Of a DNA stretch of 64,000 bases, positions 169 through 55,424 are shown in pieces. Both the position numbers and the translations under genes were made by a program. How positions within the stretch are numbered: position 1 is the stretch's first letter; each line of letters starts with the position of its first letter. This DNA comes from Euglena gracilis. Its lineage: Eukaryota. Where the stretch lies: the NCBI GenBank assembly GCA_039621445.1, contig CP154954.1, positions 41,843,572 to 41,907,571 on the forward strand, in the 5' to 3' direction. The notes beneath the pieces are model-generated. The model saw only the letters and a list, made by a program, of their open reading frames with translations. It made no database searches and was not told the DNA's origin.

Positions 169-240
169 CATGCTTGTGCTTACCGACCGGGGGGTGGGGG
201 TGCCATAGGGTGCCTGCCTTTAGCAGGCACCCCCCCCCCC
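169..240 (+). mobile_element. Left end of a second copy of the 54151 hAT MITE family
   Basis: catgcttgtgcttaccgaccggggg...atagggtgcctgcc shared with 54151-54205; right TIR not found. Confidence 0.75.
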
Positions 241-3200
241 GGGGGGGGGTCCGTGGGGGACGCAGAAAATTTTCATTGAAAATGGCCTTTTCCAGGCCCC
301 CGGCGCCGAGGTCGGGGGGGGGGAGTACCTGGTATGGGCAGGCACCCCCAAGAATCCTCCGAGGCGGGAGGATTTGAATTGGACACGGCAACCACGTGCC
401 CATCCATTCCCAGGGTCGCGTGCACAGCCAAAAGGACGGGTAAAAGGAAGCGGAATTGTTGAGGGTTTTCATTTTGACCCCCCGTGTTTGGGCAGTTCTC
501 TGAAAAAGATGCGGGAGAAAATAATCTGGGAGAAAGTTGCAGCTTCAAGGACCTTTTCTCACCTCTTTTGAACAAATTCTGGGAGCCGGAGTTTTTTCAG
601 GAGTCCCAATACCCGGTGATTTTGCAAAAAAAAATCCACCATTTGTCCACCGGAAATTTGTTTGGACCCCTCCTGCAAGCCATGGTCTGGTGGGCGCTGC
701 GGGCAGCATCGGTGAAAACGTGGAGCCCGCCTCCGTGAAGTTCAGCGGCAGCACCCCCAAGGATTTGTGAGCGGCTGGCCCGCTGTGTTTCCGCATTTCA
801 CTTTCAACCCGCTGTCTTTCACACTCGGCTTTTCCACGCCTTTCTGGAGACCAACCACCAAGTGAGTTTTCCAGTGGTGTGCATTTTCCACACGGTTGTT
901 TGCAGTTGTGTGGTTTGGAAGCGCTGACAAAAGCCCCAACTGCTTTGGGGCAGGGTGGGGAGGCTCAACAGGAGCATATGTGCGGGTCAGCGGTCAGGCC
1001 AAGAAGAGGGAAAAGAGCCAGAGAGAGGCATCACAAGCACATCAGGATTTGTAAAAGGAGTTTGGGTCCCCTGCCCCAGGACACACTGGCAAACGTTCTT
1101 TATGATGTTTGCTCTTATTCCTGGGAAGATACTGGCAGTCCGAAGTTCAGTGGCATCACCCCCAAAAGATTCAGTTGGCCTCAGAGCATTGGTTTTGTAC
1201 AGGGGGAGGGGGTATGGCCCAGTATTGCTGTTTAAGGCAACAGATTTTTTAAAAAAAGATTAAGGCTTTTGAAGGCGCTATTTTCCAGCGCGGTTTCAGA
1301 GCTGTCCCAGTCATCAAGCCAATGCTTTTTGGTTTTGTGTGTGGTCCAAAATCAAAAAGTCATTTTTTAAGTTTTGGTTGGAAAGGCAATGATGTTTCAG
1401 GGGTGCGGAAGTAATTTAACTTCCTGCAGCCTGTTTTTTTTGCCGAGATTTTCTGTGTACATTTTTGCTCAGTTGGATCTCATTTTTCCTGTCAGAATTC
1501 TTAAACAGCATTTTCAGGGATTTGGGTTAAAGTCTTTCAGGCGCATTTGAAGGCATTTTAATGTTTGTTTCAAGGCGCGTTAATAAATAATAACGATTGG
1601 GACCCCACCAAGGGGTGCCTGTGTCCGACCTGGGTGCTTTAAGCGACTGAGTTATTTTTTGGCTCCAGAACCCCCCCAAATTCTCCAGCGTTTTGCGCCA
1701 GGGGGTGACTTTCCACTTTCAAAGCACCAGTCAATCATTTTTCAAAAATAAAAAGTCACCCACTTCCACCCCTCCGCCTGGGAGGAAAGTGCCAATTGTC
1801 TGGTCGGACCCCCCCGGATCATTTTTCTTCTCTGGCACTTCATGTCACAAAATGCATGTTTTTTTGTCATCTGTTTTCGTCAATTTGAAAGTCATCCGAA
1901 AATGCAATTTTGGGCATTTATTGAAGCCCCTGAAAAAATTTCCTGCGCTCCCCCCCCCCCCAACCGCTTTGGGGGCAGGTGGGTGGGGTCGACCCCCCCC
2001 ACCCTGCATCTGCATGGTGGGCGGGGTCCCCCATCACCTCTTCCCATTGTTCCGGAAGCACCAATTTTTGCACCCCCAAAATTTTTTCCCAGCGCTTTCG
2101 GCAGTGGGTGTGTTTCGACCCATTTTGGGGCCCACATGGGAGGTCCCCCCAAACCCCATTTTTTCACACTTTCCAAAATTTCAACATTTTCTCAAAATTT
2201 TGATTTTGAGAGGTTTTTGAAGCAAAAAAAATGCCATTGAAAACCCAAAAAATTCCCAGAGAAATAATTTCAGTGAAATTTAATTGTGCCAAAATTTGGT
2301 CAAAAATTTTTGAGTTTTGTTTCCCGGGTGGGGGTCGACCCCGCCCCACCCGGGAGGTGGGGGGTGGGTCGACCCCTGGACCCCACCACCCTTTCCTTTT
2401 TTCCCAGTGTCGCTGATTTATGGACTGAAACTCTCCCGAAAGTGGAAATGGAAATTTTTTTGTGCCAGAAAGATGGGGTTTGTGTGTGGCCCCCCAAGCG
2501 ACCCTGGCCGTCGGGGCAAGGGCACCTGAGGTGTGGAGAGGGGGGTCTCCCTTCTGGGCTGAACGATGGGGTTCATCCAGCGGGACACCCAAAAGGTCAG
2601 TTTTTGGCGGTTGGTCGCCTTGCGCTGAAAATTTTGGCATTTTTTCCCCCGAAAAGCTTTTTTGGCAAATTTGGGGGCAAAAGTTTTCGGCCCGGCGCTT
2701 CGCCTCGCTGAAAATCGTTCACCCACCAGCCATTGCACAGGAGGGGGTTGCTGTCCTGCCATACTGGACCGGGGGGGTCCTAAAAACAGCCAGGCAAGAA
2801 GAAGGGATAAAAGGCACCAAACAAACAGCCACAGTGCACACAGGGGGGCCTCCCCTGTCTTCGAACACCTCTACAACCACAGGCTGACAGGCAACCGGCC
2901 AGGGGCCAGAGTATTTGCAAGAAGAGGTTGGGACACCCCACCCCAGGACACACTGGCAAACGTTCTCATAATGTTTGCTCTTATTCCTGGGAAGATGTTG
3001 CAACGCCAACCATATTTTGACCTCTTCTGATCACCCAAATGATGCCCACCCTCCACCACATGGGGATTCTTCATGGTTCGACAGGGACAACCCGCACCTA
3101 AAGTCTGGACCCAGACCATGGATTCATTTTAGAGACCCCAGACCCACCCACCCACCCATTTTTTTTCCCCCCCCCCCCCCCCGGTGAACCCATCAAGACA

Positions 3201-25961: not shown

Positions 25962-27087
25962 AGCGTTATCAAAGCGCTTTTACGCTTTTATGGGTGATTT
26001 TGGACAAAATGGGGGTACCCCCCCCTGAAGCCACCACTGACCAAGTGGTTGACGCTTTAATTCAACTGTTTCAATTTTCAAAGGCCCAAGCACGCAATGC
26101 ATACAGTGCTATGCTATTAATCCCTGGCTTTGGGGGCCTGAGGTTCCATACCATGTTAGCACCTTATAAAAGGCTTTGGAACCAAAACCTGGAGAAATAT
26201 GGTGCATTCTGGGATCCCCTCCCAATCCTCCTGGGGCTGGCACAGTCCCCCCTGCCCTCTGATATTTGTACATTGCGTACACAACTCATTTTCTGTTCAC
26301 GCATCCTCTGTTTATACAGAAGTTCAGATTTGGCACAGGTCCAAAGAACCACCAGTGTGTTGGGGGGGGCACCCTACATCAAAATTAAACGTAAAGGGCA
26401 AAAGCTCCATAAGTGGGAGAGAGTTGTCTCCATTCCCCAGTGCCCCCAAATCAGCCCCTTTCATTTAATGATGGCTTATGTGGCAGCAACACGTTTCTTT
26501 ATGAAACCTGGGGGCCCCCTGTTAATTACGTTAAAACCCCCCTACAAAGCCATTAAGGCAGATACCATTGCTTCTATCACCAAAGAATTTTTGACCAAAC
26601 AGGGGGTACCCCCCAGGTTTGGGGACCCCACTCCACCAGAGGGGCAGGGGTTGGTTTACTCAAAAAATTGGGCCTTTCTGCCCAAGAAGTTTGTGAAATT
26701 GGTCAATGGAAGGGGGTGGAGGCTTTCACAGCCCACTATCAAAGACTTGGTGCCCAAGGTTCTTTGGAGAATGCCCTGGCCCCCCTTTTTTCAGTGCACA
26801 ATCTGGCCTCACAATGGCAAAGTGCGGAGCCCGAGGTGTCTCGTACTCCCTCGAGGCAGACCGAGAAGGGAGGAAGGGACACCGAGGGCGAAGCACAAAG
26901 ACATTGTGAGCCCGACCCCCCCACCCACATACGAAAATTTGTCTTCAAACGCCCTCGGTCAGAAGATGGGGGCCAGGGGGGGGCAGAGGGGGGGGGACCC
27001 CCCCAGGGGAAAAGACAGCGCCATGGTCGCCACGTCGGAGACAATGCAGCCAACTTCGGCGAGGCGGCACTAAGCGGGACCTCCTAA
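25361..27087 (+). CDS. Tyrosine recombinase of copy E (one frameshift near 26610)
   Basis: LYRSSDLA and KRKG in 25361..27073; HSTRG, IGQW and FTAHY in the frame ending at 27087. Confidence 0.93.
26805..26910. repeat. Copy E ICR
   Basis: 26805-26842 is the reverse complement of 22433-22470; 26843-26910 is the reverse complement of the right end up to 27206. Confidence 0.95.
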
Positions 27088-27357
27088 CCCAGCGCAGCGA
27101 ACAATCACACAGCAAACCGCCGGCGAGCAAGGCATGGCCTCACAATGTCTTTGTGCTTCGCCCTCGGTGTCCCTTCCTCCCTTCTCGGTCTGCCTCGAGG
27201 GAGTACGAAAAGAGCCTCCCCGTTGTTTAAAACTTGCGGTCTTGAAGAAAAAAACAGGGGTACCCCTTGAAGGCAACCAAAGCTGCCGCAGCTCCCCCCC
27301 AGGTCCCCATTCGCGAGGCCGGGACAGTGCTCCCAGTGGTTTGGTTTTGGTATGCCC

Positions 27358-30400: not shown

Positions 30401-31046
30401 TGGGCTGCTGCGGGCAAGGTTGGCAGGGGTGTATGGGCCGTGGGGCCGCGGTTGACGGCGCGAAAAGCGCACACGTTTCCGGGAGCAGGTTCCGGCAGCG
30501 TAGCTCGGGCCACGAGAGAGGTCATTTCATCGTGCCCATCCAATCGCATGGTTTGGCCTCCACAACCGGTCGGTCACTGCGGAACGTTTCTGGCTCTTTC
30601 GGCATTCTGTCCTTGACAACACCAGCATTCCAGACACAGTCCATGCTGCATTCCTATGCCACGTGCGACGGTGACTGGGGAGCTGGACCAGGGGGGAGCA
30701 ACATGCATACACATACTCGACACATACTCGAACGCGGCGCACAGGGCGATGGTCTCCTCGATGCCCAGGCGGCCCCCGGGGCGCCAGTTCAGGATCGGCC
30801 CCGAGCCGATCGCCGTCTGCCCCCAACAACCCCGACCTGGCGCAGGGGACTTAGCGGCCCCAGCCACTGGTTGCATTCCCCAACCGCAACTTTTTGGAGA
30901 TGGGACTCCTTCGCAATTTCCCCCATGGGCCCCCGTGCATGTGTCTTGTCTTACGTGAAATCCAATAGTCCAAATAGAAGCGCACCCCCTGCCGCCGGGG
31001 GCGGCGGTCCTCTATAAGCGCACCCGTACTTCTATTAGGGGGGGGG

Positions 31047-31240
<194 letters not shown>

Positions 31241-32926: not shown

Positions 32927-35399
32927 CCCCCAGCCCGGGGGGGGGGGGGGGTTGTGCCTGCCTGGTCATGGATCTAAACGTGCCCAGAGTGGCCTCTTCT
33001 GGGCTTGCGGCGCCAGAAGCAAAACCAACTTCCTTGAGGACAAATTGGAAAATATACACTTGAAAAAAGAGAAATTTGTCTCAACCGCCCCCAGAAAAAA
33101 GAAAAATCTTGGGGAAAATGCAAAAAACCCACAAACACTCTAGAAAACTGCAAATGAATCCTGGAACACACATGCACACACAAAATGCAGATGTGTTTCC
33201 TATGTAGACCCCAATTCCACTCCAAAGGCTTCATATGGCCAAGTATTCCCCCGGAGATGTTCAACTCAACACTTGAAAGGCAACATTGTGCAAATTGCAC
33301 AAACAAAGAAACAACAGATCCATTCTTTCTATCCCAAGCGTGTGCGCACACACACACACACGCGCGCGCGCGCACGCACACACACACACACAGCAGTCGC
33401 AGAGATAGGGAGTCCACCAGCGATGGAGAAGTGGTGCTGCAGCGCCGTCAAGGGCCTTCCCAGCAGGGGCGGCGAAGAAGTTGGGGGCAGTGAGGTAGCG
33501 CCTTCCACCGGGGGATCGAACCATCCCTTCCCCTGTGGCACAGCAGGCCAAGGCGTCAGGCACGCAAAACGGCCAGTGCAGAGGGGGGGGGTTGTCCCAT
33601 AATAACAATATTTCTCCCCAGGGACTGGTATGGGGACTTGTCCCTGAGACTACTCCCAAGGACTTGGGGGAAACGTCGGCAATTCAGGAATTTCCTTAAA
33701 GATGGGGGGGCCTGTGGAAAAAATGCTTGCTGGACCCCCCCCCCCCCCTGGGGGTGGGTCCGGGGGTGAGTTCCAGCTCTAACCACGCAAATCAGTAGTA
33801 TTCTCTCAAACAGCCTTTCCTTCAGACCCAGGGATGAACGGTTACACTTCCACAAGCCAGATCTGAAAAAAGCCAGATCTGTCCCTGCTGTGAGACAGCA
33901 CCCCAGCCAGGAAGAGCTCGATATAAAACTGGTGCCTCTGGTCAAGGAGGGGGGGATTGCCGCCCAAACCATTGCACAGTGGGCCAAATTGACCAAATTT
34001 CAGCCCAACCGAAAATTTGAAATCAGCCAAGAATGCGATTTCGGGCACTTTTCTTTGGTGAATTTTTGGCCAAAGTGCTGAAATTCTCTGGCGTGAAATG
34101 CTGGAGGGACTTTGGGGTTCCAGAGGGCCGGGGGACACGCCTGCAGGGGTGGGCCGGCACGGGGGGTTGCCGGGCCCGGGGGAGGGGGCAACGCTGTCGG
34201 GAGGACCAGGCCCCTTCCCCGCAGTGGGGGGTCGGGTCCCACCGACCACTGCTCCAGCCCAGTTGTGACTCACTCACCGATCACCGCCAAAGAACCCGGG
34301 ACGGCCGTGGTCCTCGTTGTGTCCTCCAACTGAACCGTTGCATGCATCAGCCGGCAGGCCATGGTTCCCATTGCATTTTCATTTTTGAGAACCGGTGCAC
34401 AAAAAAGGGGTGCTTGGATTTAGGGTGAGAGTCAGGGTTTACTCTCCAATGAGACATTTGGTCTCCTGCAATATATGCAATTGGGCAACGGCCAACTAAC
34501 TAATGCTGACACTGGTTCTGTGAGAGATAATGATAGAAAACAGAGAGCTGATAAACACATTTATTGGTTCCTCAAATGGAACATCAAGCCCTGATGACGT
34601 GAAAACGTTAAAGACGGTAATTGAGCACTTGGTATATTTTACAGGAAGGGGACAAAGCATTTGCAAGGCATAAACCACCCACCCTCCCTCTGCACCCTCC
34701 CAGATTCCACCGCAAGCTGCACAAAGGTCACGGATGCTTTCTTGCCGGGCAGGTCAGGCTTCTTTTTACCAACCCCTGTGGGAGGAGGGGCAGGGTTTGA
34801 TACAAGTCCAGGTGGTGGGTTGGACCCCTCCCCCCGTCTAGGAGGAGTGGGGGGCCATCCCCCCACCAAAACAGTGGCATGGTAAAAGTGACTGATTTTC
34901 GGTTCAGTGCGAAGCGCCGAGAAACAATTGACTTCCAAAACGGCAGTCAGTGCCTTTGGGAAAAAATTTATCGAAAATGCAAAAAAAATTCGACGCAATT
35001 GCCGGAAGGAAAACTTTGACCATTTTGGGGTTGGTACCAGGTACCCCCATGGGGTTGGTCTGGATCCCCCTGGCAGATGGGTGGGGGGGTGGGCCGAATC
35101 CCCTGGTCCAGGGAGGAGCAGTGGAGGGGGGGAGCACCCCCCCCCACCTAAATCCTGTACACACTCCTTATGTCGAATGGGGTGCCTGCCCAGCAGGCAC
35201 CCCATCCCCCGAGAGGGGTTCACAGGCATATTTCCCTTGAAAATGGCCATTTTCAGACCCCTGGGTCTATGGCAGCGGGGGTTTGGCATGACACCCACCC
35301 CAAAACCTTGCCCTCCCGGCAGGGCACCCCCTTGTCTGCTCATAGCAGTCTCTCCCACAAGGAGGTGTGACGTTCCCGAAAGAAAAAAGCATTCCAACG

Positions 35400-42835: not shown

Positions 42836-44399
42836 CTTGGCAGATTAAAGGAAGGTGGTGGGGGGTTTGCCTGGGTGCTGTGTTGAGGTCCTGGACAGGG
42901 CTGTACGGGAAAGCCTGGTGGGGGGGATGGGTTGACCCTCTCACAAAGTTCGTTCGGCGCCAAAGGTGTCGAAGGAAAACTTTGACCTAAAGATTGGCGC
43001 CCCCGGAAATATGGGGAGGCCAGGTGGGGGGGGGGGCGGTCGGACCCCCCGCCAGCATGGGGGTGGGGGGGGGGGGGTGGTCGACCCCCCAACACCCATG
43101 GGGTTGCAGGGATTCCCATACAGCCATGGTCCCGACGTACACCATATTGAAGCCTGTGAACTACCCATCAAAAAAAGGTTTCCACTCATTTTCCTGAATT
43201 CCCCCTCCTTCCTGAGTTTTGAGCCCCTCAAAATCTAAATGGCCCACAACTCCGGAATCCCGAGGAGTTGTGGAACTTGGTGCCTTGAATTGCCCATGAA
43301 AACAAGATGTCCAGATCAAAGCTAGCCATTTGGACACCCAGAAAAAGTTATTTTACGATCTTGCTACCAGCTCAGCCCCATTATGTTTGGGAAGACACAA
43401 ATTCCATAAAAAATGCAGCTTTTTTGCAGAGTTGGCATCAATGCAGCACACAGCCAACGTCACATTGGCGTCAATAAGGCAAAAAAAATCAGGGGACCTC
43501 GTAAAGACTTTTGTACCAGTGTGTTGTAAAGACTTATGCACCAGACCACCGCCGCCATAAGCAGCGGTCCGCTACAGTCTGGCAGGCTGTATTTTGGTCA
43601 GGTGCCGACCCCACCCCGAGGGGGGGGGGGGGCGGGGCGAGGTGGGTGCTTTGGACGCGATCACGCAGGTGGGTGCTTTGGAACCCACCTGCGTGATTCT
43701 TTTTGTCATTTTCTTCATGTTTTCTTGCCATCAAAATGGGGGGGGGGTGCACTTGTAGTGGACTGGAGGGTTCGGCAGCAGAGGGTGCGTTTTATTTGGA
43801 CCCTGTGCTTGTTGAGGCCAGACGTTCATTCTCCAATGCCATGTGATGTACTTCTTGGGACCTCCCCTATGTTGGGGGGAACAAGTTTTTCCAAGCTTTA
43901 TTTGTTTACAAAAAAATCCTTTTGTCCTAAAAATTCCTTTTCCAAAACACAAATTGGCAAAGTTTGCAACCCTTGAAAAAACCGATTGCCCCTTTAAAAC
44001 CAACCCTTTTTGGACCGACAAACGACTGAGAGCCACCAAGACCAAAGAAAATGCTTATTGGGGGGGATGTAATGGACATTTACAATCATTCAACGACCAC
44101 TGGCTTGTTGCAAAAAAGTACAAGGTCTCATGGTCAAACAACTCATGCACTTACCATTTTCCAAACCGGATATTTTTCGATTCCAATCCTTGAATTTTGA
44201 AAAGCTTGTGCGAGTCTAGATTTTTGATGAGAGTCTCTCAAAGTGAAAATTGTTCACCTTCAACTCCATATAAAAAGCTTCATGGTTTGTGCTCTCGTTT
44301 GTCCACCAAAAAAGCATCTACATTTTCAATACAAATTAAAATTGAATGGAAAAAAAGATACAAAATGAAGCCCCTGTGGAGGAAGCAGTCATCATCACC

Positions 44400-44755
44400 A
44401 GAGGCTTCTCTTCGGCTGCACCGACATCAACGTCTGTAACTGGGAGTCTGCGAATAACAGGGCCGACGTCGGCCCCCAGCAGGTCCGCCCAGTACGGGTG
44501 GTTTACCGGCACGCGGTGGCGGAAGAAGAAGCCCCGCAGCAGCTGCTGCCGCCGCAGCGTCTCCTCCGGGAACGACGATGCCTTGCCGTACGTCATGCTG
44601 GCCGGGCTGTGGCGCGACATGCTGCGATATCGGTTGCTCACCACTGCAGCGGTACGGTGGGGCAGCAGCGCCGTGACCGTCTTCCAGTCGATCGGTCCAC
44701 TCTGCGATTCCACAGCACTGAGAATGGTCTGGTCCTCCTCCGCCGTGAACGCGTC
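44400..44755 (-). CDS. Host gene exon encoding a Myb/SANT DNA-binding domain (3' boundary approximate)
   Basis: FTAEEDQTILSAVESQSGPIDWKTVTALLPHRTAAVVSNRY at ~44627-44749 fits the Myb repeat consensus. Confidence 0.82.
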
Positions 44756-44811
44756 GGGGCCAGGCTGCCACCCACGAGGGCACCCATATGGTATCCGTGC
44801 GCAGCCTGGGC
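44756..44811 (-). other. Nonconventional intron, 56 bp
   Basis: gcc-CAGGCTGC...GCAGCCTG-gcccc (perfect 8-bp stem); removal resolves the apparent frameshift to FCSY|DAFTAEED. Confidence 0.85.
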
Positions 44812-45081
44812 GTAGCTGCAGAAGACCCGCCGGAAGATGTCACCGACGAGGTGAGTAATACGTTTCTTCTTGCTGCACAGTGTCTGCGCCGTTGGCCACA
44901 GCTTGTCCAGGTCGAGCCAGCCCTCCTCCTGAAGGCAGTCGGCGATGCACCGGACGACGGCCTCGAGGTGGCCCTCCTCCGGGGTGGCGGGGGTGATGTA
45001 GGGGACGGGGGCCAAATATCGCAGTGACTGGGGCTGGGCCAGAGGGTACTCCACCGTTCCTCTTAGGTTCAGCCCATATTC
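44812..45081 (-). CDS. Host Myb/SANT-domain gene, exon (90 codons)
   Basis: EYGLNLRGTVEYPLAQ...IFRRVFCSY, in the frame of ORF 44638..45054. Confidence 0.8.
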
Positions 45082-45169
45082 CCTGACAGGCCTTTCTGAT
45101 CTTTGAACTGAATGCCGCCCAAAAACAAACGAGAGACTTAAAAAAACAACTGTATACCTATGGAAGGCC

Positions 45170-46405
45170 TAACCCCCCCAAAAAATAAGACCCGGGTCTT
45201 ATTTTTGGGTCCTTTTCTGGAGACCTCCAGGGGGGGTCATATATTTTGGGGGAGTCTTATTTTTGGATTTTTTCTTGACCGACCCGGGCCCGAAAAAAAT
45301 GTCATTTTTCAGGTTCCAAAAAGCATCAAATATTTTCCTTTGGCGCTGCGCCATGTGGTGTGAGTTGACATTTAGCATGTTTTTTTGCACCCCAAAGATC
45401 AGAAATTTTTTGAAATTTCATCATTTTTGTAATTTTTCAGGGAAAATCTTCGGCTCTTCGCGCCGTCAGGGGGGGTAGCCTCCAGCCACCCTTTGGGCAG
45501 GGTCCAAATTAAAAAAAAAACTCGTCGATGGTCGATGGAGGGGAGTCCGGGGCAAGAAAAAGGCTGCTGGCTGGACCCCCCTTCCTGGGGATGGGGTGAC
45601 ATTTAGCATGTTTTTTTGCACCCCAAAGATCAGAAATTTTTTGAAATTTCATCATTTTTGTAATTTTTCAGGGAAAATCTTCGGCTCTTCGCGCCGTCAG
45701 GGGGGGTAGCCTCCAGCCACCCTTTGGGCAGGGTCCAAATTAAAAAAAAAACTCGTCGATGGTCGATGGAGGGGAGTCCGGGGCAAGAAAAAGGCTGCTG
45801 CTGGCTGGACCCCCCTTCCTGGGGATGGGGTGCTCAAGTGACGCCCTGATTGGAGGACCTTTTTTGATTTTCTTTTGGGGTTGTCAAACTTAGAAGACCT
45901 GCTTTCCACGCAATTTCTCCTCAGCGGCAAAAAAAAAACTCACGTGGTTCTTGGTGGTGTGAAGAAACACAAACTCTGTGGAAACCCCATTTTTTCGATA
46001 GGGTGGATTCACTGAGGTTTTGCGATGGATTTGACCCCCTTTGAACGCAGGCGAGGGGAATCCCCAGCATGTGCACACAGTGCACATTTTTCGAGGGCGA
46101 TTTTTCGATTTCCCAGTGAATTTTTAGGACAATTTTATGTGGAGGCCAATTTTGATATTGCAAAGCCATGTCCTGGGAAGTTGCCACTGAGGACTGTGCC
46201 TCATGGGTTGACATGAACATCAAAAGGACGGTCCGTTCCGTCTGGATCTGGGGGGACGTTCATCGGGTATGGGGTGCATTTTGTGTTTGCATTTTGCTTC
46301 AAAGGTGACAAGCACGACAGTCCGGGGGGTCTTATTTTTGGGGGGTCTTATTTTGGTTTTCTGCTCGATCGGCCCAGGGTGGGGTCTTATTTTTGAGGGG
46401 GTTTA
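45170..46405. mobile_element. Non-autonomous TIR element with subterminal GGGTCTTATTTT repeats
   Basis: taacccccccaaaaaataagaccc / gggtcttatttttgagggggttta. Confidence 0.6.
45366..45832. repeat. Tandem duplication, ~231-bp unit x2
   Basis: 45366-45596 nearly identical to 45597-45832. Confidence 0.95.
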
Positions 46406-49400
46406 CCGCAAGTTCCTACCACGCAATTATTCCCAGACATTCTGAGGGGTCACTTTCCACTTTAAAAAAAAGCCTATCCAGGTTCTCATATAAAAGCGTC
46501 GGTCAGGTTGTGCCATGCACATAAATTGCAGCCATAAATTCGGTGGGGAAATGAAAAAAATCTAAAGAAAAGTATAATAAATTGGGCCGGGCGGCCTAGG
46601 GTTGGGGACTGGGATCACCAGTCTGCTGAGGGGATTGGACCATCCATTTTATGGTAAAACCGTCAAATTCCTCTTGTGTTCTCATTGGTCATGACAAAAC
46701 CATCGATTTCTCATTTTCCCCGCAAAATCCTGGGAAGTCTGGGTCATGCATAGGATTAGGGTTTGGGTTCGGATTTGGCCCAAAACCAAACTGAGGACTG
46801 AACTTGGCCAAAATTTGGGCCTGATTTTGAACTTTGTTAGCCTGAAATTAGGCACAACTGCCTAAATTCAGCCCAAAATTAGCGTCACCCTAAACCTATT
46901 CCAAACCCTGATCCTATCCCCAACCACCAACCCTGTGTGCTGTGTGGGCACCATGAATCCTTGGGTCATCTCCGGGTGGCGGGGCGTTGCCAGCCTGGGT
47001 GTGGATCTCAGGCCCACTTCGTTACCCAGGCGGGTCTCACTGCCCCCTCCACAACGAAGTGGGACCCCCCCCAGAGAGTCTCACCAGTTCATGGCTGCCG
47101 CTTAGGTGGCCTAACTTGCCTTAATGTTGGAAATGGCTGGGGCATTGCGCAAATGCACAACCTCCAAAAATTTTCCAATCTCCAATCCCGAGTTGTGATT
47201 TCCAGGAAAACCCATGTTGGTGTGCTGGATGCCCTCACAGCCTGGCATGAAAGCAACAACTTAGAACTTTTCTGTCTGTGGGCATAGGTCTCCCAAGGTC
47301 CATTGTGCATGAACCTGACAGCGCTGGGCAATGAAATGAGTGGACTCCATTGAAAAGATTCTGTGTTTGCGCAACGGAGAACCTAAATTTTGAATTGCAA
47401 AAAATAGAAATATTGTGCATTTGCAAAATGTTTTTTAATTAGGTGTAACTCTGAATGTGGGTGATCATTGCCCAAAATCATTGCATTTGCGCAATAATAA
47501 TAAGCACCTTCATACTTAAATTTGTTTTTGTTGTGTATCTGTGCAATGGGTGTCAGACCTTTTTCTTTTTATCAACCCTGGGGCTACTCTTGTCTGTGTG
47601 GTGCAGACAGTTAAATATGAGCTCTGCATCACCCTCTGGGGGGGGGGGGCTGAAAAACAAGCTCCACAGACAAGTCAGCGTGGGACGGAAGAATGGTTCC
47701 ACCACCCATGGGGCACCCTCTGGGACAGGGGATGCCTTGTGGTATGGAGAGCCTGCCCATATGTTGTTCATCTGCACAACGGCCACGCGGATTTAGAATT
47801 TAAAAATTCCATGTCCATCGTGTATTTTTGCATTGAAACATTTAAACTTTCGTTCTAAATCAACTTGCTTTCTTTTGAAAAAAAAAGTTTGCACCCTCCA
47901 AGGGTGGGTGCTGGGTATTTTTTTTTTAAGTTTGGACCCCCCGAGGAGGTTCAAATTTGGTCAGGTGGAGTGGGTCTCCTGCCGGGGGCGGGGTTTGCTT
48001 CTTTTTCGACGCGAAGCGCCAAAATTTTTTGGATCCCAATTTCCCCCCCCCCCCCCCCCAAAAGCACCCCCTCAAGGGGTCGGGGGTGGGTGGGTCAGTT
48101 CAGGTCTCCCCTGAGTCTTTAAAAAGAAACCCCTGGCAGGCCGGGGGTGGGGCATTTGCAACCCGGGGGGGGGGGGTTGGGTTTTGGAATGGTTGCGCTG
48201 TACATGCACACCCGGGCATTGAAGGCACCGAGGGCCCGAAAATGGTCATTTGGAAGAGAAAGGTGGCTTGGTTGGCAGGCACTGGGACCCAAAACCGATC
48301 CCGGGGGGGGGAATCTCACCTCACAACAAAATATATTATCTATTTTCTCATTTTCTGTGCCGATTACACATATGTGCAACAGAAACACATATTTCAAAAT
48401 GCAAATTAGCTTGGTCATTGGCAATTGCGCAACAATCACCAATTTTGGCATCACTGTGGGCAGGAGAACGTTCCTGGAACCATCTCAACTCCAGAGCAGA
48501 CAAAATTGAAACGCAGAACAGCCTTGCTTGGGACAGGCAAACACCACCCTGGTGTGTGTCTGGACCCGGGAGGGAGAAAGCTCTGGAGCTTCCACAAACG
48601 ACCCCGAACGACCCTCGGGGAGGCTCTAGATGCGCCTTGAACGTTGTTTGAGGAAGCTCTATAACCTTCTCATATGTCGTCAGAGGTCTTTCGAGGAGGC
48701 TCTAGAGCCTCCTCCCACGTCCATGCATGCACGTATCACGAGACCCGGGACATCAAATGGGGAAGCGGAGGCAACAAAACGTTTTTGGTACACGACCCTC
48801 CCTGTGTCATGTCAAACTCACCCCTTTTGCGTGCATGTTGACCTAACACTATCTGTTCAAATAGCAACGTCAGAATACATGATACTGGAGTGGATGCTCT
48901 TAAGGCAACAACCACCCCTGCGCACTCCAGTGTTTCCAGTTCCAATACTTCCAAAAACACCTTGGATGGCCAAAGTGGCACTTAAGGATATCACCAAAGC
49001 ATGCACCCCAGGCGGTCCGTGGTCCGGGACCTGGCGGTGCTTGAAACCACCAGCCGGAGCGACATGCACACACCGCACGCACGCACGCACGATCCCGCGC
49101 ACCTGCGCACGTAAGAACACCCCCCCCCTTCTCTGGCGCAATTGCGCCCGTTTTGACCCCCAATCGCACGCATTTGAGGGTGAGTTCAGGCGCAACTGAA
49201 TGCGACCTGACCCCTCCAGTGTGTCGCGTGCCTCGGCACTGGGGCACCCAGAACAAGCGGCGACACTGAGAGAACCAACAGGGACACGCACTCTTCACCA
49301 CTAACATCCAGTGGTTGCAGAACAATGAATCGACCACCGAAAAACTGTGGAACACACACCAGGTGACAAGAACTCGAGCCCTCCGCCGCCCCTGTTCGAG

Positions 49401-51676
49401 ACCCCGAGCCAGAGGGAACACCACTCAGCACCAAACCACGCGCACCTACGCCTGCGGATGTACACACTCCGTGCGCACTTGCGTGATTAAGAGATGGATG
49501 AGGGACCCTGTGGCCCGGGATGAAAACGCAGAAAGAGTGAGGAAACACATTGTGCCGAAGCGCAATAGCCCATATTAAAAAAGAGAAATGAAAACACGCG
49601 GCTAACATGCAATCTGAATGAACAAGCAGTGCATTATATAGGCATACTCACCAAGCCCACACACAGGCTTTGCAGAGAGGCCCCTGACACACCGTAACAC
49701 ATCAATGGAACCCAATGCTCAGCACAAATGTCGTATGCATGTCATGTGTGTTGGTTATCAGCTCTTCGTCTGCGTAGCCCCTATTTTGAAGCCCCTGCCA
49801 ACAGACACTACGCAGGGAGGCCACCACTGTCCCCAGGCGCAGCACCAGGAGGCTGAGGCCTTGACTCTGGCCATGGGAGAGGGGTCTTTGGTGGTCGGGG
49901 TCGCGCGCATGTGCGCCAGATTGGGGATCTCTGAGGAGAGAATCACACATCTGAAAACGTGCTGAACGAGGGGGGTTAAACCTCATTGAGCTGCACGGCG
50001 AAAACATAATGCACCCTTGGTTCTGAAACACACCCAAACCGCCCTAATTTATTGCGATGGCTGACAACTGGTACCACAGTCGGCAGGTCTGATTTTGAGA
50101 TCCCTGAAATAAACCCCCTCCACAGACCTGGTTTCTGGATTGCACGCAACATGAACACGAGTCGAAAATGGACTTGCCAAAAACAAGAGGGCATCCTGGA
50201 CCCAAATTCAAAAAAAACGAGGCCTTGTCCATATAATTTCCTTTGGAAACACGCGTAACACTGCCAAAAAAAGGTCATCATTTCTGGAGTTTCTGGGGCG
50301 GCAGAGCAGCACCGTGCCCAACAAACACTGTGCCATGAAGCGAGGGTGATGGAGTCTCCATTCCTAAAACACGGACGCAGTTGTGCAGGCGGCCCACCTC
50401 ATGGGGCGCTGTAGACCTCTCACGCAGTCGCACTGAAGGTTTCCAAAGAGGGGCTGCAACAGGGTTTTGAAGGCGAGCCTGAAAACTACCCTCAGGTGCG
50501 CACGGTCCTGCGGACCAGTCGATACATCGCCTCCGGATACAAGCCCTGGGGTACCCCCTTCCAGACATCAACTTCCGTTCCCTTGAAAATCCTCCACTGT
50601 TCTAAGACCAGAGGCATTGCCTTCTCCTCTGTTTCCCGGTGAAAGCAAACCCTCTGCCTAGTGCAAACAGCCATGCCATCTGGAGGTTCTTCTGCCTGAG
50701 ACTGTCACATTGACAAGCTAAATGGGGGGCTCATTCATCACTTTCTAAACCCAACACCCTCCAGCCCAGGGGCACATCTGCGCGCGCCTCATGTACCAGC
50801 GTTTTCCACTGGCGTTCAGCATCGGAGACGCTGCGGGACGACTTTAACACCCTTCCCACAAAGCACCGCAACCGTCGCCTCACCCTGGCCATGCTCACAG
50901 GGCTGGAGGCTGCACACCCTCTCCCTGTCAACAGCCCCAGATCGTGCGTAGATGCGCGCGCTTGTTGTGTTTAAACGGGTGCACCTGGTGCGTGGATTGA
51001 CTGGAGGGGCACACTCAGCTTACCCCACGTCAAACCACCGGTTGGGAGTGTCCTCATCTGTCTTACCAACTGTGGGCAGATGCAGGGTCTGTACCACGGC
51101 AGGGATCACGCATCTCCTCCCGCCAGCATGCACACACGACGTCATCCAACGCATCGACACAACTCCAGCCCCACTACTGCACGCATGTCCAAAATGGCCC
51201 TCAATGATCATCCGCACACCCTCTGCGGCGCCCAAAGCTCCCAACGCTCCAACCTAATGGCACCCTGCACAGCACACCCCACGCCTTGCACAGCTGCGGC
51301 ATTTGGGGGGAGGGTTTATTTGAATGAGAAGCTTATCAGGATGTGATCAGCCTAACACGGGGAAAATGCACTACTATTAGCCTGTCGTAAAAATGCACAA
51401 AGGTATGCAAAAATGTGCAAAATCTGAACAGAGAGAGAGAGAGAGAGGGAGATAAAACACAAAAATCACAAAAAAATGCAAAATCGCCAAAAAAAGCAAA
51501 AAAATAGAAAGAAGAAATCATATGGAGATACGAGGGCGGGAAGAGGAAGCTTTCAAAAAAGGCCAACAAATTTCAAAGAAAGAAAACGCAAAAAAAAAGC
51601 CCAAAATGGCCAAAAAAACAAGGTCAAAAATTGGGCAAATCACAAAAAAAGGGTGTGCCGAAAGCAACACAACAAA

Positions 51677-52748
51677 CACTGAAAAAAAACCGATACAAAA
51701 CGGCCAAACTGCCAACAAAGCAAAGAAAAAAAACTTGTGCGAAAAATGCACGAAAAAATGTGAAAACACATTGCCCCTGATTCGTGACCGGTAGTCTCTT
51801 TGTTATCAAAAGCAACCTGCCTCAGCCCGGCCTTGCCCGGCCAGGTCTCCCCGGATGTCCGGGCGGTCCAATGGCCCGGCCCGGCCTGGGCTTAATTTAC
51901 CTTCTCCAGGCATTTTGCTTGATTTTGCTTCTTTCGAGGATTATTATGGGGATTTTGCGGGTTTTCGAGCCTAAATATGGCCAAAAAATGGGCCGAAATT
52001 GGCCGTTCCTCAGGGCCAGGTGGTTGATTTGGAAACAGGTAAAAGTCACCACACAATGTGGGAGCGGTTCCCAGGGCTTGGCTTTTAGGTCGCCGAACAT
52101 TCATCCTTTGATTTCTGCGATTTTAATAAACACTGGACCAAATGACAAAATCGATTTTTGTGGGAAAACGGTATAATAAAAAGCCCGGAGGATTGTTTGG
52201 GCCGTAAATGGCCACATCTCGTGCTAAAAAGCACTGAAAAAAACCGAAACAAAACTGCCAAAAAGCAAAGAAAAACTTGTGCGAAAAAATGCACGAAAAA
52301 TGTGAAACACATTCCCCTGATTCGTGCTGAGCTCTTTGTTATCAAAAGCAACATGCCTCAGCCCGGCCTTGCCCGGCCAGGTCTGGAGGCCGGGCGGTCC
52401 AATGGCCCGGCCCGGCCTGGGCTTAATTTACGTCTCCAGGCATTTTGCTTGATTTTGCTTCTTTTCGAGATATTTGGGATTTTGCGGGTTTTCGAGCCTA
52501 AATATGGCCCAAAATGGGCCGAAAATTGGCCGTTCCTCAGGCCAGGTGGTGATTTGGAAACAAAAGTCACCACACAATGTGGAGCGTTCCCAGGGCTTTC
52601 TTTTAGGTCGCCGGACATTCCTTTTGATTCTGCGCCATTTTTAATAAACACTGGACAAATCGATTTTTGACCCAGAAATGGTGGAAAACGGTATAATAAA
52701 AAGCCCGTGAGGCTGTTTTGGGCCGTAAATTGGCCACATCTCGTGCTA
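51677..52748. repeat. Tandem duplication, ~550-bp unit x2
   Basis: 51677-52226 repeated at 52232-52748; second copy has many small deletions. Confidence 0.9.
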
Positions 52749-53906
52749 GGTGGAGAGTTGCGGGAAATCAAAATATCGTCAGATAAAGCCTTTTTAAGGG
52801 CTTCAATTAGACAACCGTTAGATAAAGCCTTTAATTCAGATTTCTGGACATTTTGTTTGGTTTTGCTTCATTTTTGAGATGTTTGGCATTCGCGATTTTC
52901 TGGTCCAAAAAAAAAAATGGCCCGAAATGGGCCCGAAAATGGCCGTTTCTCAGGCCAAGCGGGGAGCTATGGGAAAATCAAAATACAGTTAGATAAAGCG
53001 GTCTAAAGGCTTTGTTTGATGTCACAAACATTTCCTTTCATTTTTGGCTTCTTTTCCAAGTTAGTTTGAAAGGGGTTTTTTTGCCCATTTTGGCTTAAAT
53101 GGGCCGAAAAACGTGTCAAAAATCGAGGCTGTGGATTTGGGGCGTAACTTTTGCCAGCCGAAGATGCCGGGAAAGCCAGGTACCGCAAGCAAGCAAACAT
53201 GATGTAACCTCCCATGTAATTTACGTAATATTGATGACGTGATAATTTTAGATGGAGCTCCCCTGGTCCAACTAGTTTGTTCGCCGGGGGCCTTCAGCCG
53301 ACTGAATTTTATTGCATTTTCCTTGGTTCCCCAAGCCACCCTGGAGGGGCGGTGTGCCGGAGGGGTGGTTATTTGATTAGGGTTAAAATAGGTCAGGGAG
53401 GTCCTTAAGCATAAAAAGGTTCCCAGCACATTCAATGAAAAAACCACAGGAAAAATGGTCCATATTTTGGCAAAACGGGTCGACTTCGAGGGGAAAACAT
53501 GATTTCTGGTATTCTTGGACCATCGCCCATCCATCCAAAATGTCAAAATTTTTTTTTTTCAACTTTTTCATATTTTTACTCCATTCGAGCCCTTGACCAT
53601 CGACCGGCCCTTGGGCCCAAGGGCGATCCTAAAGCGGCGGTCCTTAAACAAAAAAAATCATCCAAAAGAATCACCCGTCCCTTGTGGACCGCCCTGGTTA
53701 GGGTTAAAGTCAGTGTTAAGAATGGGGTAAGGTCACGACCTTCTATTACGCTTCAGGACTAATTTACAATGAAATTTCGGCCCGACTTCGGCCTCACTTT
53801 TGGCCTAAATACCAGCCATAATCTGAACATGTGTTGTCTTTTCCCTTAAACAGGAGTGGCAGGAGGTTCCAATCAAGACATTTTGTTTCTGCAGAAAGCA
53901 CTGGTC

Positions 53907-54145
53907 GCGCTGTAGCTCACCGTCCATCCAGCGGGCCCAGTACTGGCTGAAGAGGCCCAAGGCGAATGCCCGGGAGCGTGCGGACGCCACAGGCTTCTGA
54001 ACCTTCTTTCCGGCGACCCGCCGGGCGAAACATCTCTTGACAAGCTTCAGCTGCAGGCCTGGCAGTAATGAAAAGATTCTCTGCTCCGGCAGACCCCGCC
54101 GGTGCAGGTCGTAAAACACCTCAGACGTGCTGCCGAACACAGAGT
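53907..54145 (-). CDS. Host Myb/SANT-domain gene, exon
   Basis: SVFGSTSEVFYDLHRRG...QYWARWMDGELQR; bounded by two CAG/CTG-type introns. Confidence 0.75.
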
Positions 54146-54263
54146 CCGACCATGCTTGTGCTTACCGACCGGGGGGGGGGAGGTGGGTGCTATAGGGTGC
54201 CTGCCCCTAACACCCCCCCACCCCCTCGGTGGGGTAGGCACCCGACTAAGCACAAGCCTGAGT
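54146..54263 (-). other. Nonconventional (non-GT-AG) intron, 118 bp: a MITE plus one target-site copy
   Basis: act-CAGGCTTGTGCTTA...TAAGCACAAGCATG-gtcgg; removal gives LQGWSDSVFGSTSEVFYD in frame. Confidence 0.75.
54151..54260. mobile_element. hAT-type MITE, 110 bp
   Basis: 14-bp TIRs catgcttgtgctta / taagcacaagcctg (1 mismatch); perfect 8-bp TSD agtccgac at 54143-54150 and 54261-54268. Confidence 0.92.
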
Positions 54264-54444
54264 CCGACCATCCCTGCAACACGTGAATTCTCTCGGTCGA
54301 TGTCAGGTCCTTCGTCGCCTCGGCTTTCGCAGTGACTGGCTGTCCAACGTGCACGTTGGTGGCCGCCGCCGCCGCCACCACCACCTGCAGCCGTGCCTCC
54401 CGGACGGTCTCGGCGGCCAGCAAGGGGCAGCAGAAGATGTCCAT
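54264..54444 (-). CDS. Host Myb/SANT-domain gene, first recognisable coding exon
   Basis: ATG at 54444 (start uncertain), GC-rich codons, pyrimidine tract plus CAG acceptor at 54480; joins the next exon in frame. Confidence 0.7.
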
Positions 54445-55424
54445 TTGTGAGGCGATCAGCTTTAGGTTTTGCAGGGCACCTGTGGGCGAAAGACAAACTC
54501 TTGCGGGGGCCCACACTAAGGGGAAAAGCATGGAGGCACATGTTTGGAAACAGGCGAAAGTTTGCAAAACCGGTGGCTCACAGGCGCATTTTTAGCACTG
54601 CTGTTGGCACGCGGACAGTTCAACGATAATCACGTCAGGGAAGATGATAGAAATCCTTCAAATATAATATCACCCGATTTTTTTTTGAACCCCTCCCAAA
54701 CAGCATGGCAGGCAGGGGTCCTTGAGAAACTCCCTGCCCGGCGTCATAAATGGATCCATGCGTGAATTTTTCAGAAACAAACACAACTTGAACGCTCTTT
54801 TGTGTCGTCGTCACATGCTTTCTTTAAGGAGGGGGGCCTGTCCAACTGAGGGGGTGGGGGTTGGAAAGGCAGCAATGACCAAGGGCAAGGGAGCCCATAT
54901 GGCTGGAAGTGTTGTTCCATTTAAAGGGGGGTGTCCAGCCGGTTGCTGGCTGGGCCTCCTCCCCACTAGGGGTGGGGCGTCTGGTCCGACCAAATACTGG
55001 GCTGGGCACAGCTGGTGCCCAAAAACTTTCAAAACAACCCAAATCCAGCTTGGTTGGCATTTTCAGCCAAAATTTTGGACACTCACCTTAAACCTCTGTT
55101 CAAACTTTTTATGCTTTGGGCCGAAATTTTGTCAATCCAGCCTGCCTCCGCCAGGCTGGAAAAACCAGACTCGCCGGGGTGGAAAGACTCGCCGGGGGGG
55201 GGGTCCACAGCCCAGCTGGAAGGTGTTGGCTGGAAAAAAAAAGCTACTGGACCCCGGGTTCCGGATTAAGGGATTCCTTGCCCTGAGAAATTTACACATT
55301 TTGAACACAATATTCTGAAAGACCAGAATAAATAGAGCCTGCTGACACGAACAGAACTTTTGTGGGGGGTCAGGGATAATAAGGGAAACCAGAGGAGGGG
55401 TTTGAACCCCCTCCCAACGCAAAA

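Follow-up and report, generated by a model that had tools for sequence, protein, structure and literature searches.

At positions 54151-54260 of the window, the 64,000-nt stretch of Euglena gracilis DNA analysed here, a non-coding MITE-like element of 110 nt interrupts the first coding exon of a gene read from the minus strand, with a copy of an 8-bp target-site duplication on either side. That this is a real and young MITE insertion, with its duplication, in a real exon is close to certain. The reading adopted here, with a probability of about 0.5, is that of a young "proto-intron", spliced poorly or not at all, in a gene copy that is silent or disrupted, because the base at -8 is an A and no transcript of the exon was seen. 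An abundant non-autonomous DNA transposon making 8-bp duplications would have inserted recently, in a euglenid genome, into the first coding exon of a gene that is otherwise intact and encodes a Myb-domain protein of 373 aa. Its RNA would fold into a long hairpin whose foot, N3-CAG / ATG-N5^A (the caret standing for an exon boundary), would have the geometry used by the euglenid non-spliceosomal pathway, and cleavage 3 nt ahead of the inverted repeats and 5 nt behind them would take out the element and one duplicate with no scar. The third pair, a mismatched G.A (-8 = A), would leave splicing currently absent or poor, and this gene copy, one of several paralogues, would be either silent or the source of a frameshifted message that would be degraded.

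The element, its duplication and its family

The element, to which no strand is assigned, is defined by its arms, its duplication and its read depth. On the plus strand its left terminal inverted repeat, CATGCTTGTGCTTA, occupies 54151-54164 and its right one, the reverse complement of CAGGCTTGTGCTTA, occupies 54247-54260; the two copies of the duplication agtccgac, likewise unstranded, are found at 54143-54150 and 54261-54268. The plus-strand layout is thus ...cacag AGTCCGAC, then the element from CATGCTTGTGCTTA to TAAGCACAAGCCTG, then AGTCCGAC catccc.... The 110-bp element and its perfect 8-bp duplication are exactly as the first-pass annotation had described them. The 14-bp inverted repeats that it had proposed are both present, with one correction: they are complementary at 13 of 14 positions and not perfectly, the sole mismatch falling at position 3 (CATGC vs CAGGC). 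The perfect direct repeat extends in fact over 12 nt, GAGTCCGACCAT, at 54142-54153 and 54260-54271, that is one matching base to the left of the duplication and three to its right. The base preceding the duplication is identical to the last base of the element, and the three bases that follow it are identical to the first three; these four extra matches could be due to chance or to a target preference.

The singularity of this structure was assessed by a census of the inverted repeats of the window, restricted to outermost pairs with 14-nt arms, at most 2 mismatches and a separation of 20-2000 nt. Among the 619 pairs so obtained, the direct repeats at the flanks measured 0 nt in 421 cases, 1 nt in 154, 2 nt in 36, 3 nt in four, 4 nt in three and 8 nt in a single one, which is the element at 54151-54260. 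Chance therefore falls far short of explaining inverted repeats and an 8-nt duplication at one site. The left-arm 14-mer has in addition four matches in the window with at most 2 mismatches, against 0.32 expected, a number reached in none of 100 shuffles; one of these sites, at 169-182, carries the same 14-mer again. It opens a second member of the family (169-247, plus strand), which aligns with positions 1-84 of the element at 81% identity. The first-pass annotation had listed a second copy at 169; it belongs indeed to the family, but it is truncated to its left end and lacks the right arm. A diverged right-end fragment is found at 43583-43632; in all, the family has in the window a full and a truncated copy together with fragments. 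The left ends in the window read CATGC (2/2) and the right ends CAGGC (2/2), and the mismatch at position 3 of the arms may be, on these few ends, a trait of the family; mismatches situated 3 nt from the end of an alignment are clipped in the read comparison described below, and the indication that this one may be family-wide comes from the ends in the window.

The abundance of the family was observed by placing the Logan contigs of the DNA run X1 on 53601-54800, in bins of 40 nt. The four bins of the element reach a summed word depth of 125,154-499,212, vs 27-31 in the single-copy flanking bins. The family is very abundant, although summed word depth is not a copy number and a family size of the order of 10^4 is accordingly rough. 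Altogether 5056 contigs matched, 1661 at 99% likeness or above and 3395 at 95-99%, and the large number of near-identical copies marks the family as young. The sequence beyond the ends of the element is diverse in these contigs (consensus agreement of the loose ends, 0.45-0.56), and the similarity of the RNA and DNA records of other copies stops just after 54260, with loose ends behind 54260-54262. Two scans of metagenome contigs returned no locus for the element. Short, non-coding, bounded by inverted repeats and an adjoining duplication, and present in many copies with different flanks, the element has the features by which MITEs are recognized. A transposon is thus supported by a depth ratio of about 10^4, by the inverted repeats, by the duplication and by the 1661 of 5056 contigs at 99% likeness or above.

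It could be argued that no transposon is involved, and that the hairpin and the repeat arose by chance or as filler DNA during the repair of a double-strand break. The 12-nt perfect repeat, longer than a standard 8-bp duplication, would suit this explanation, and break repair was proposed for a similar case, a gapC intron, in the accessible part of its report (PMC4770533). It is nevertheless scarcely credible in view of the thousands of near-identical copies with diverse flanks (agreement 0.45-0.56) in X1, and of a flank repeat longer than 4 nt in only 1 of 619 inverted-repeat pairs. In DNA run X1, contigs cross the two element-flank junctions at depths of 30.7 and 27.8, vs 27-31 for the unique flanks, and there is no visible empty-site joint, 118-nt skip or empty allele. 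With a junction depth equal to that of the flanks and no empty-site joint, the insertion looks fixed in the X1 sample.

The superfamily of the element is less clear-cut. Duplications of 8 bp are made by hAT and by P elements, and hAT elements have a terminal motif YARNG and a target consensus nTnnnnAn. The right arm (CAGGC) fits this motif and the left arm (CATGC) does not; similarly, position 7 (A) of AGTCCGAC fits the target consensus and position 2 does not. P-element ends begin with CATG, and P elements fit the element as well as hAT elements do. The "hAT-type" label of the first-pass annotation was derived from the 8-bp duplication; the duplication is there, but its length is common to P and Merlin and is for this reason non-specific. 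The likeness to the three superfamilies consists of the 8-bp target-site duplication together with short inverted repeats. Two Merlin families with 8-bp duplications are described in E. gracilis, with Merlin ends in 5'-GG (PMC8101967, accessible part). The start of the element in CA, against the 5'-GG of that source, ruled out Merlin.

The interrupted host gene

The element interrupts what is supported, by homology, as a real and otherwise intact gene. The gene model (44336-54444, minus strand) comprises three exons. Exon 1 (53921-54444) opens with an ATG at 54444-54442 and is made of two parts, 54444-54264 and 54145-53921, on either side of the element; it is placed by homology to P0004, P0006 and other relatives. 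It is followed by a GT-AG intron of 8813 nt (45108-53920; donor G^GTGAGC, acceptor TTCAG^TT, in a phase that fits), by exon 2 (44812-45107, from homology), by a 56-nt non-conventional (NC) intron at 44756-44811 and by exon 3 (44336-44755). The latter encodes a Myb-like DNA-binding domain (PF00249, E = 2.2e-6) and the stop codon, and is assigned by this match and by homology. The GT-AG intron and both short introns are deduced from homology alone. This 8.8-kb GT-AG intron is packed with repeats.

The minus-strand frame upstream of the element (54262-54486) and the frame downstream (53922-54152) are offset by exactly 118 nt. Once these 118 nt, the GT-AG intron and the 56-nt intron are removed, the joined model measures 1122 nt and encodes 373 aa with a single terminal stop; with the element retained, the first stop occurs at codon 84. 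Residues 1-341 of this model align in one matched stretch with residues 3-338 of P0006 (38.6% identity, E = 7e-69), and this single match spans the join over the 8813-nt intron.

The relatives came from a complete search of 1.84 thousand million representative proteins (E <= 0.001), with the downstream half-exon (77 residues) as query. Six proteins were obtained, five of which are aligned along 74 or more of the 77 query residues; the match of P0008 was limited to an 18-residue repeat and this protein was dropped as a relative. P0004, a protein of 169 aa from the Logan assemblies, is 88% identical, shares the start methionine and crosses the insertion site uninterrupted. By tblastn, its residues 1-61 fall on 54444-54259 and its residues 56-164 on 54158-53832, the overlap in residues being explained by the duplicated codons. 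P0006 (428 aa) also aligns with 45126-44435 of the window, in two frames. P0004 and four other relatives are gapless across the insertion point, an empty site at the protein level. The family is small, with members from Logan, ENA, NCBI and JGI/IMG data, none of which bears a functional name, and neither half-exon has a Pfam match. Three proposals of the first-pass annotation are borne out by these alignments. The element does lie in a coding frame, since the exon is recognized by homology and the frame is intact once the three interruptions are removed; the scarless removal of the element and one duplicate (118 nt) agrees with the uninterrupted passage of P0004 through the site; and the relatives without the 118 bp, which were suggested as a check, are provided at the protein level by P0004 and the four other gapless proteins.

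The exon bins 53841-54000 and 54281-54480 show 2-5 times the single-copy depth in X1, and one X1 contig has a 3-nt deletion at 54362, in a GCC run; the extra depth and the deletion suggest close paralogues or alleles of exon 1. At another place of the window, 30673-30813 on the minus strand, a short match (E about 1e-5) was noticed to the twice-repeated C-terminal motif of P0007, and this segment may represent a piece of a further gene in the family of the host gene, to which P0007 belongs.

The 56-nt NC intron (minus strand, GCC-CAG-GCTGC ... GCAGC-CTG-GCCCC^G) was placed by its fit to the published splicing code of Euglena, which it follows at every point (PMC12501133), and by colinearity with P0006, which is lost unless this intron is removed. 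In the predicted fold its two ends are paired. The window has a euglenid-like character.

Other repeats were noticed elsewhere in the window. Several retroelement copies or fragments occupy both strands at about 5300-27500, with the reverse-transcriptase motif YLDDILL identified by eye, and 26849-27200 contains an inverted repeat of 22 nt, the 8 outermost of which make up the palindrome CCTCGAGG; the retroelement at about 5300-27500 looks DIRS-like. A Pfam search of 10 large reading frames elsewhere in the window gave a sub-threshold RNase H match only, in the frames of the retroelement, and Rfam gave 0 matches on the window. Long CA/TG dinucleotide microsatellites are situated at about 31050-31200 and 33200-33300, in which the reading frames spell THTH... 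and CVCV....

The element against the splicing code

The code of NC introns in E. gracilis was recently defined as 5'-N3CDG-/-CH'GN5-6^R (Nomura et al. 2025, PMC12501133). No change in the length of the 3-nt donor spacer is tolerated; the acceptor spacer is of 5 nt, with 6 nt tolerated, and a purine is preferred at the start of the exon (PMC12501133). Synthetic introns revealed that pairing adjacent to CAG/CTG is needed, and in a knock-in assay with one backbone each single substitution in CAG or CTG abolished splicing; the transcripts of the substituted introns vanished, for which the authors blame nonsense-mediated decay (PMC12501133). The full signature is present in 61.2% of the annotated NC introns of E. 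agilis and missing from 38.8% (PMC12501133). In natural NC introns, CA at +4,+5 and TG at -7,-6 are the most conserved positions, according to the accessible part of Milanowski et al. 2014 (PMC3935182).

Under the N3/N5 rule, the element would correspond to a putative 118-nt NC intron at 54146-54263 (minus strand), ACT-CAG ... ATG-GTCGG, the next exon base being the A at 54145. The coding strand reads ...GGTCGG ^ ACT CAG GCTTGTGCTTA ... TAAGCACAAGC ATG GTCGG ^ ACTCTG.... The donor side conforms to the code, with a 3-nt spacer and CAG at +4..+6 (ACT-CAG, 54263-54258, minus strand). On the acceptor side (ATG-GTCGG, 54153-54146) the 5-nt spacer conforms to it and the first exon base downstream is a purine, as the code wants, but the motif is off: T and G are present and A replaces C at -8. 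The first-pass annotation had brought forward a rule of CAG at +4..+6 and CTG at -8..-6; at the element its first half holds and its second does not, the triplet at -8..-6 being ATG. The conserved CA (+4,+5) and TG (-7,-6) are both intact. The middle A-T pair is kept, the third pair is a G.A mismatch, and an 11-bp perfect stem follows, the predicted fold of the whole element having an energy of -75.4 kcal/mol (z = -3.17). In the opposite orientation the family would read CAT...CTG and would fail at the same pair. The boundary can slide over 13 equivalent placements, each of which gives the same mRNA, and no GT..AG exists among the 13. Only the NC route could therefore rescue the gene.

Transcription of the locus was examined at two levels. 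Among the indexed runs, no RNA run contained the stretch, and 17 runs marked "DNA?" contained it. X19, X22 and X23, three raw RNA-seq runs that carry the same species label, were then compared with 53601-54800, about 5%, 6% and 56% of each being sampled (1934, 1244 and 1780 million letters). In none of the three runs did any of the 26 bins outside the element show a depth above 0. The matching RNA reads (23 + 12 + 15 = 50) are all confined to the element and run on into unlike sequence; all 50 derive from other copies. The absence of exon reads would be expected if the gene were silent, if an unspliced message were degraded or if expression were low. A rough estimate from the read numbers puts expression at less than a few tenths of a transcript per million, and low expression is allowed for because only these fractions of the runs were sampled. 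In the protein collections, P0004 was the only protein found and the junction-spanning, spliced product of this locus was absent. Reads of other loci in the RNA runs fall mostly on the 30-60 nt at the right end of the element (54201-54260). In run X19 the depth reaches 4.5-8.7 there, compared with 0.25-0.45 in the left half, and the start of several reads lies near 54230; some expressed sequences may share only the right end of the element.

These observations bear on the possibility that the element is already a working NC intron, excised with 3 nt of flank ahead of the inverted repeats and 5 nt behind them, in a functional and weakly expressed gene. The N3-CAG ... xTG-N5^A geometry, the 11-bp stem and the intact CA/TG core (the core as defined in the accessible part of PMC3935182) plead for it. 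So do a host gene that is otherwise intact, an insertion at full depth in X1 with no empty allele seen, the lack of a GT..AG placement that makes the NC route the sole rescue, and the code-compliant NC intron of the same gene (44811-44756), which implies that the pathway acts on this type of transcript. It is opposed by the A in place of C at -8, single substitutions of the motif having abolished splicing in the tested backbone (PMC12501133), by the 0 RNA reads on the exon in the three sampled runs and by the lack of the spliced product in the protein collections. A working intron is thus conceivable, with the odds against it.

A second variant would remove the element at other boundaries, for example by pairing its own CAG with the exonic CTG at 54142-54140, which corresponds to N6 and to the removal of 130 nt, with a loss of four codons. 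Four of the 18 code-compliant motif pairs overlapping the element do restore a stop-free frame (145, 136, 130 and 73 nt). Each of these four has however at most 2 base pairs beside the motifs, where pairing is needed (PMC12501133), and each would delete or add conserved residues with respect to P0004 and P0006, which makes such boundaries very unlikely.

The proto-intron remains the preferred reading. Against efficient splicing stand the zero depth outside the element, the ATG motif, the missing junction-spanning protein, the stop at codon 84 of the frame that retains the element and the knock-in results (PMC12501133). The proto-intron has itself to contend with a gene that is otherwise undamaged and an insertion that looks fixed in X1, with a CA/TG core, an 11-bp stem, a 3/5-nt spacing and an exon-start purine that are all right, and with the 38.8% of annotated E. 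agilis NC introns that deviate from the signature (PMC12501133).

Spacer arithmetic and known systems

Beyond this locus, NC introns represent about 70% of Euglena introns, and the arithmetic of their spacers has a wider bearing. When inverted repeats ending in CAG...CTG are flanked by an 8-bp duplication, removing 3 nt, the element and 5 nt restores the exon. The sum 3 + 5 = 8 is correct independently of this locus. The first-pass annotation had equated 3 nt plus 5 nt with one target-site duplication; this agrees with the N3-CDG/CH'G-N5-6^R code (PMC12501133), and the same 8-bp arithmetic also fits a recently gained gapC intron with eight-nucleotide direct repeats, as described in the accessible part of PMC4770533.

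Generalized, this arithmetic leads to the hypothesis that euglenid NC splicing is a precise excision at the RNA level, tuned to CAG...CTG inverted-repeat elements with 8-bp duplications. The 3- and 5-nt spacers would be one duplication split in two, exon insertions would be scarless from birth, and the family of roughly 10^4 copies, or close variants of it in which the third position is paired, would be an intron generator that is still active. The hypothesis is attractive in that it fits the published data, this locus alone being no proof of it; in its entirety it must be considered tentative and rather unlikely. Direct repeats are found at 84.4% of E. agilis introns, and the origin of euglenid NC introns was called unclear (PMC12501133). 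Repeats resembling target-site duplications at NC intron borders are mentioned in the accessible part of a review (PMC11282704). A MITE origin has been a general idea since 2014, with no element family named in the accessible part of that source (PMC3935182). In the literature searched, subscription journals and supplements lying outside the search, no paper was found that states the 3+5 = duplication argument or that ties NC introns to a named family or to hAT.

The CDG...CH'G hairpins of the window were also searched for flanking 8-nt duplications in a decayed state. Of 59 pairs, 8 matched at 5 or more of the 8 flank positions, vs 6 of 177 shifted controls; this weakly positive result carries little weight, because several of the pairs have an arm in common and one pair corresponds to a palindrome within a retroelement. 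In this test the 8-mers flanking the CAG and the CTG of the 56-nt intron, GCTACGCC and GCCCCGAC, match at 5 of 8 positions. The interest of the locus is that it offers a concrete and abundant family, with an intact duplication, in an exon, and with exactly the geometry that the code requires, from whose motif it departs by one base, at -8. This one-base deviation constitutes a natural experiment on the strictness of the code, and the numerical prediction that the spacers 3 + 5 equal a duplication of 8 is testable with existing data.

Besides the transposon superfamilies, three known systems can be compared with this element. It shares with euglenid NC introns the lack of GT-AG, the paired hairpin ends and CAG at +4..+6 (PMC12501133 and the accessible part of PMC3935182), as well as the 3/5-nt spacers, the purine at the exon start and borders that can slide through direct repeats. 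It differs from them by the A at -8 and by a removal from RNA that is putative; furthermore, the published NC introns are untied to a named repeat family, whereas the element belongs to one of very high copy number.

The closest individual case is intron 4 of gapC in E. agilis ACOI 323, which is strain-specific, recently gained and bordered by eight-nucleotide direct repeats (Milanowski et al. 2016, accessible part of PMC4770533). According to the same part of this source, these repeats are longer than those of older introns, and the authors proposed double-strand-break repair (PMC4770533). Both are young, lineage-specific insertions in an exon with eight-nucleotide direct repeats; the gapC intron, compared here by its published description, differs in that its splicing is established and in that the accessible part of PMC4770533 reports neither a repeat family nor an inverted-repeat element for it.

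Finally, the element resembles the introner elements of Micromonas, dinoflagellates, fungi and the tunicate Fritillaria, which are presented as MITE-like intron generators in the accessible part of PMC11282704. Like them, it is short, non-coding, multi-copy and bounded by inverted repeats, and its insertion, together with a duplication, would be removable from RNA without a scar (PMC11282704, accessible part). Introners, however, are removed by the spliceosome, often by means of splice sites supplied by the duplication, as far as the accessible part of that review goes (PMC11282704), whereas only the non-spliceosomal euglenid route would be available to the element described here.
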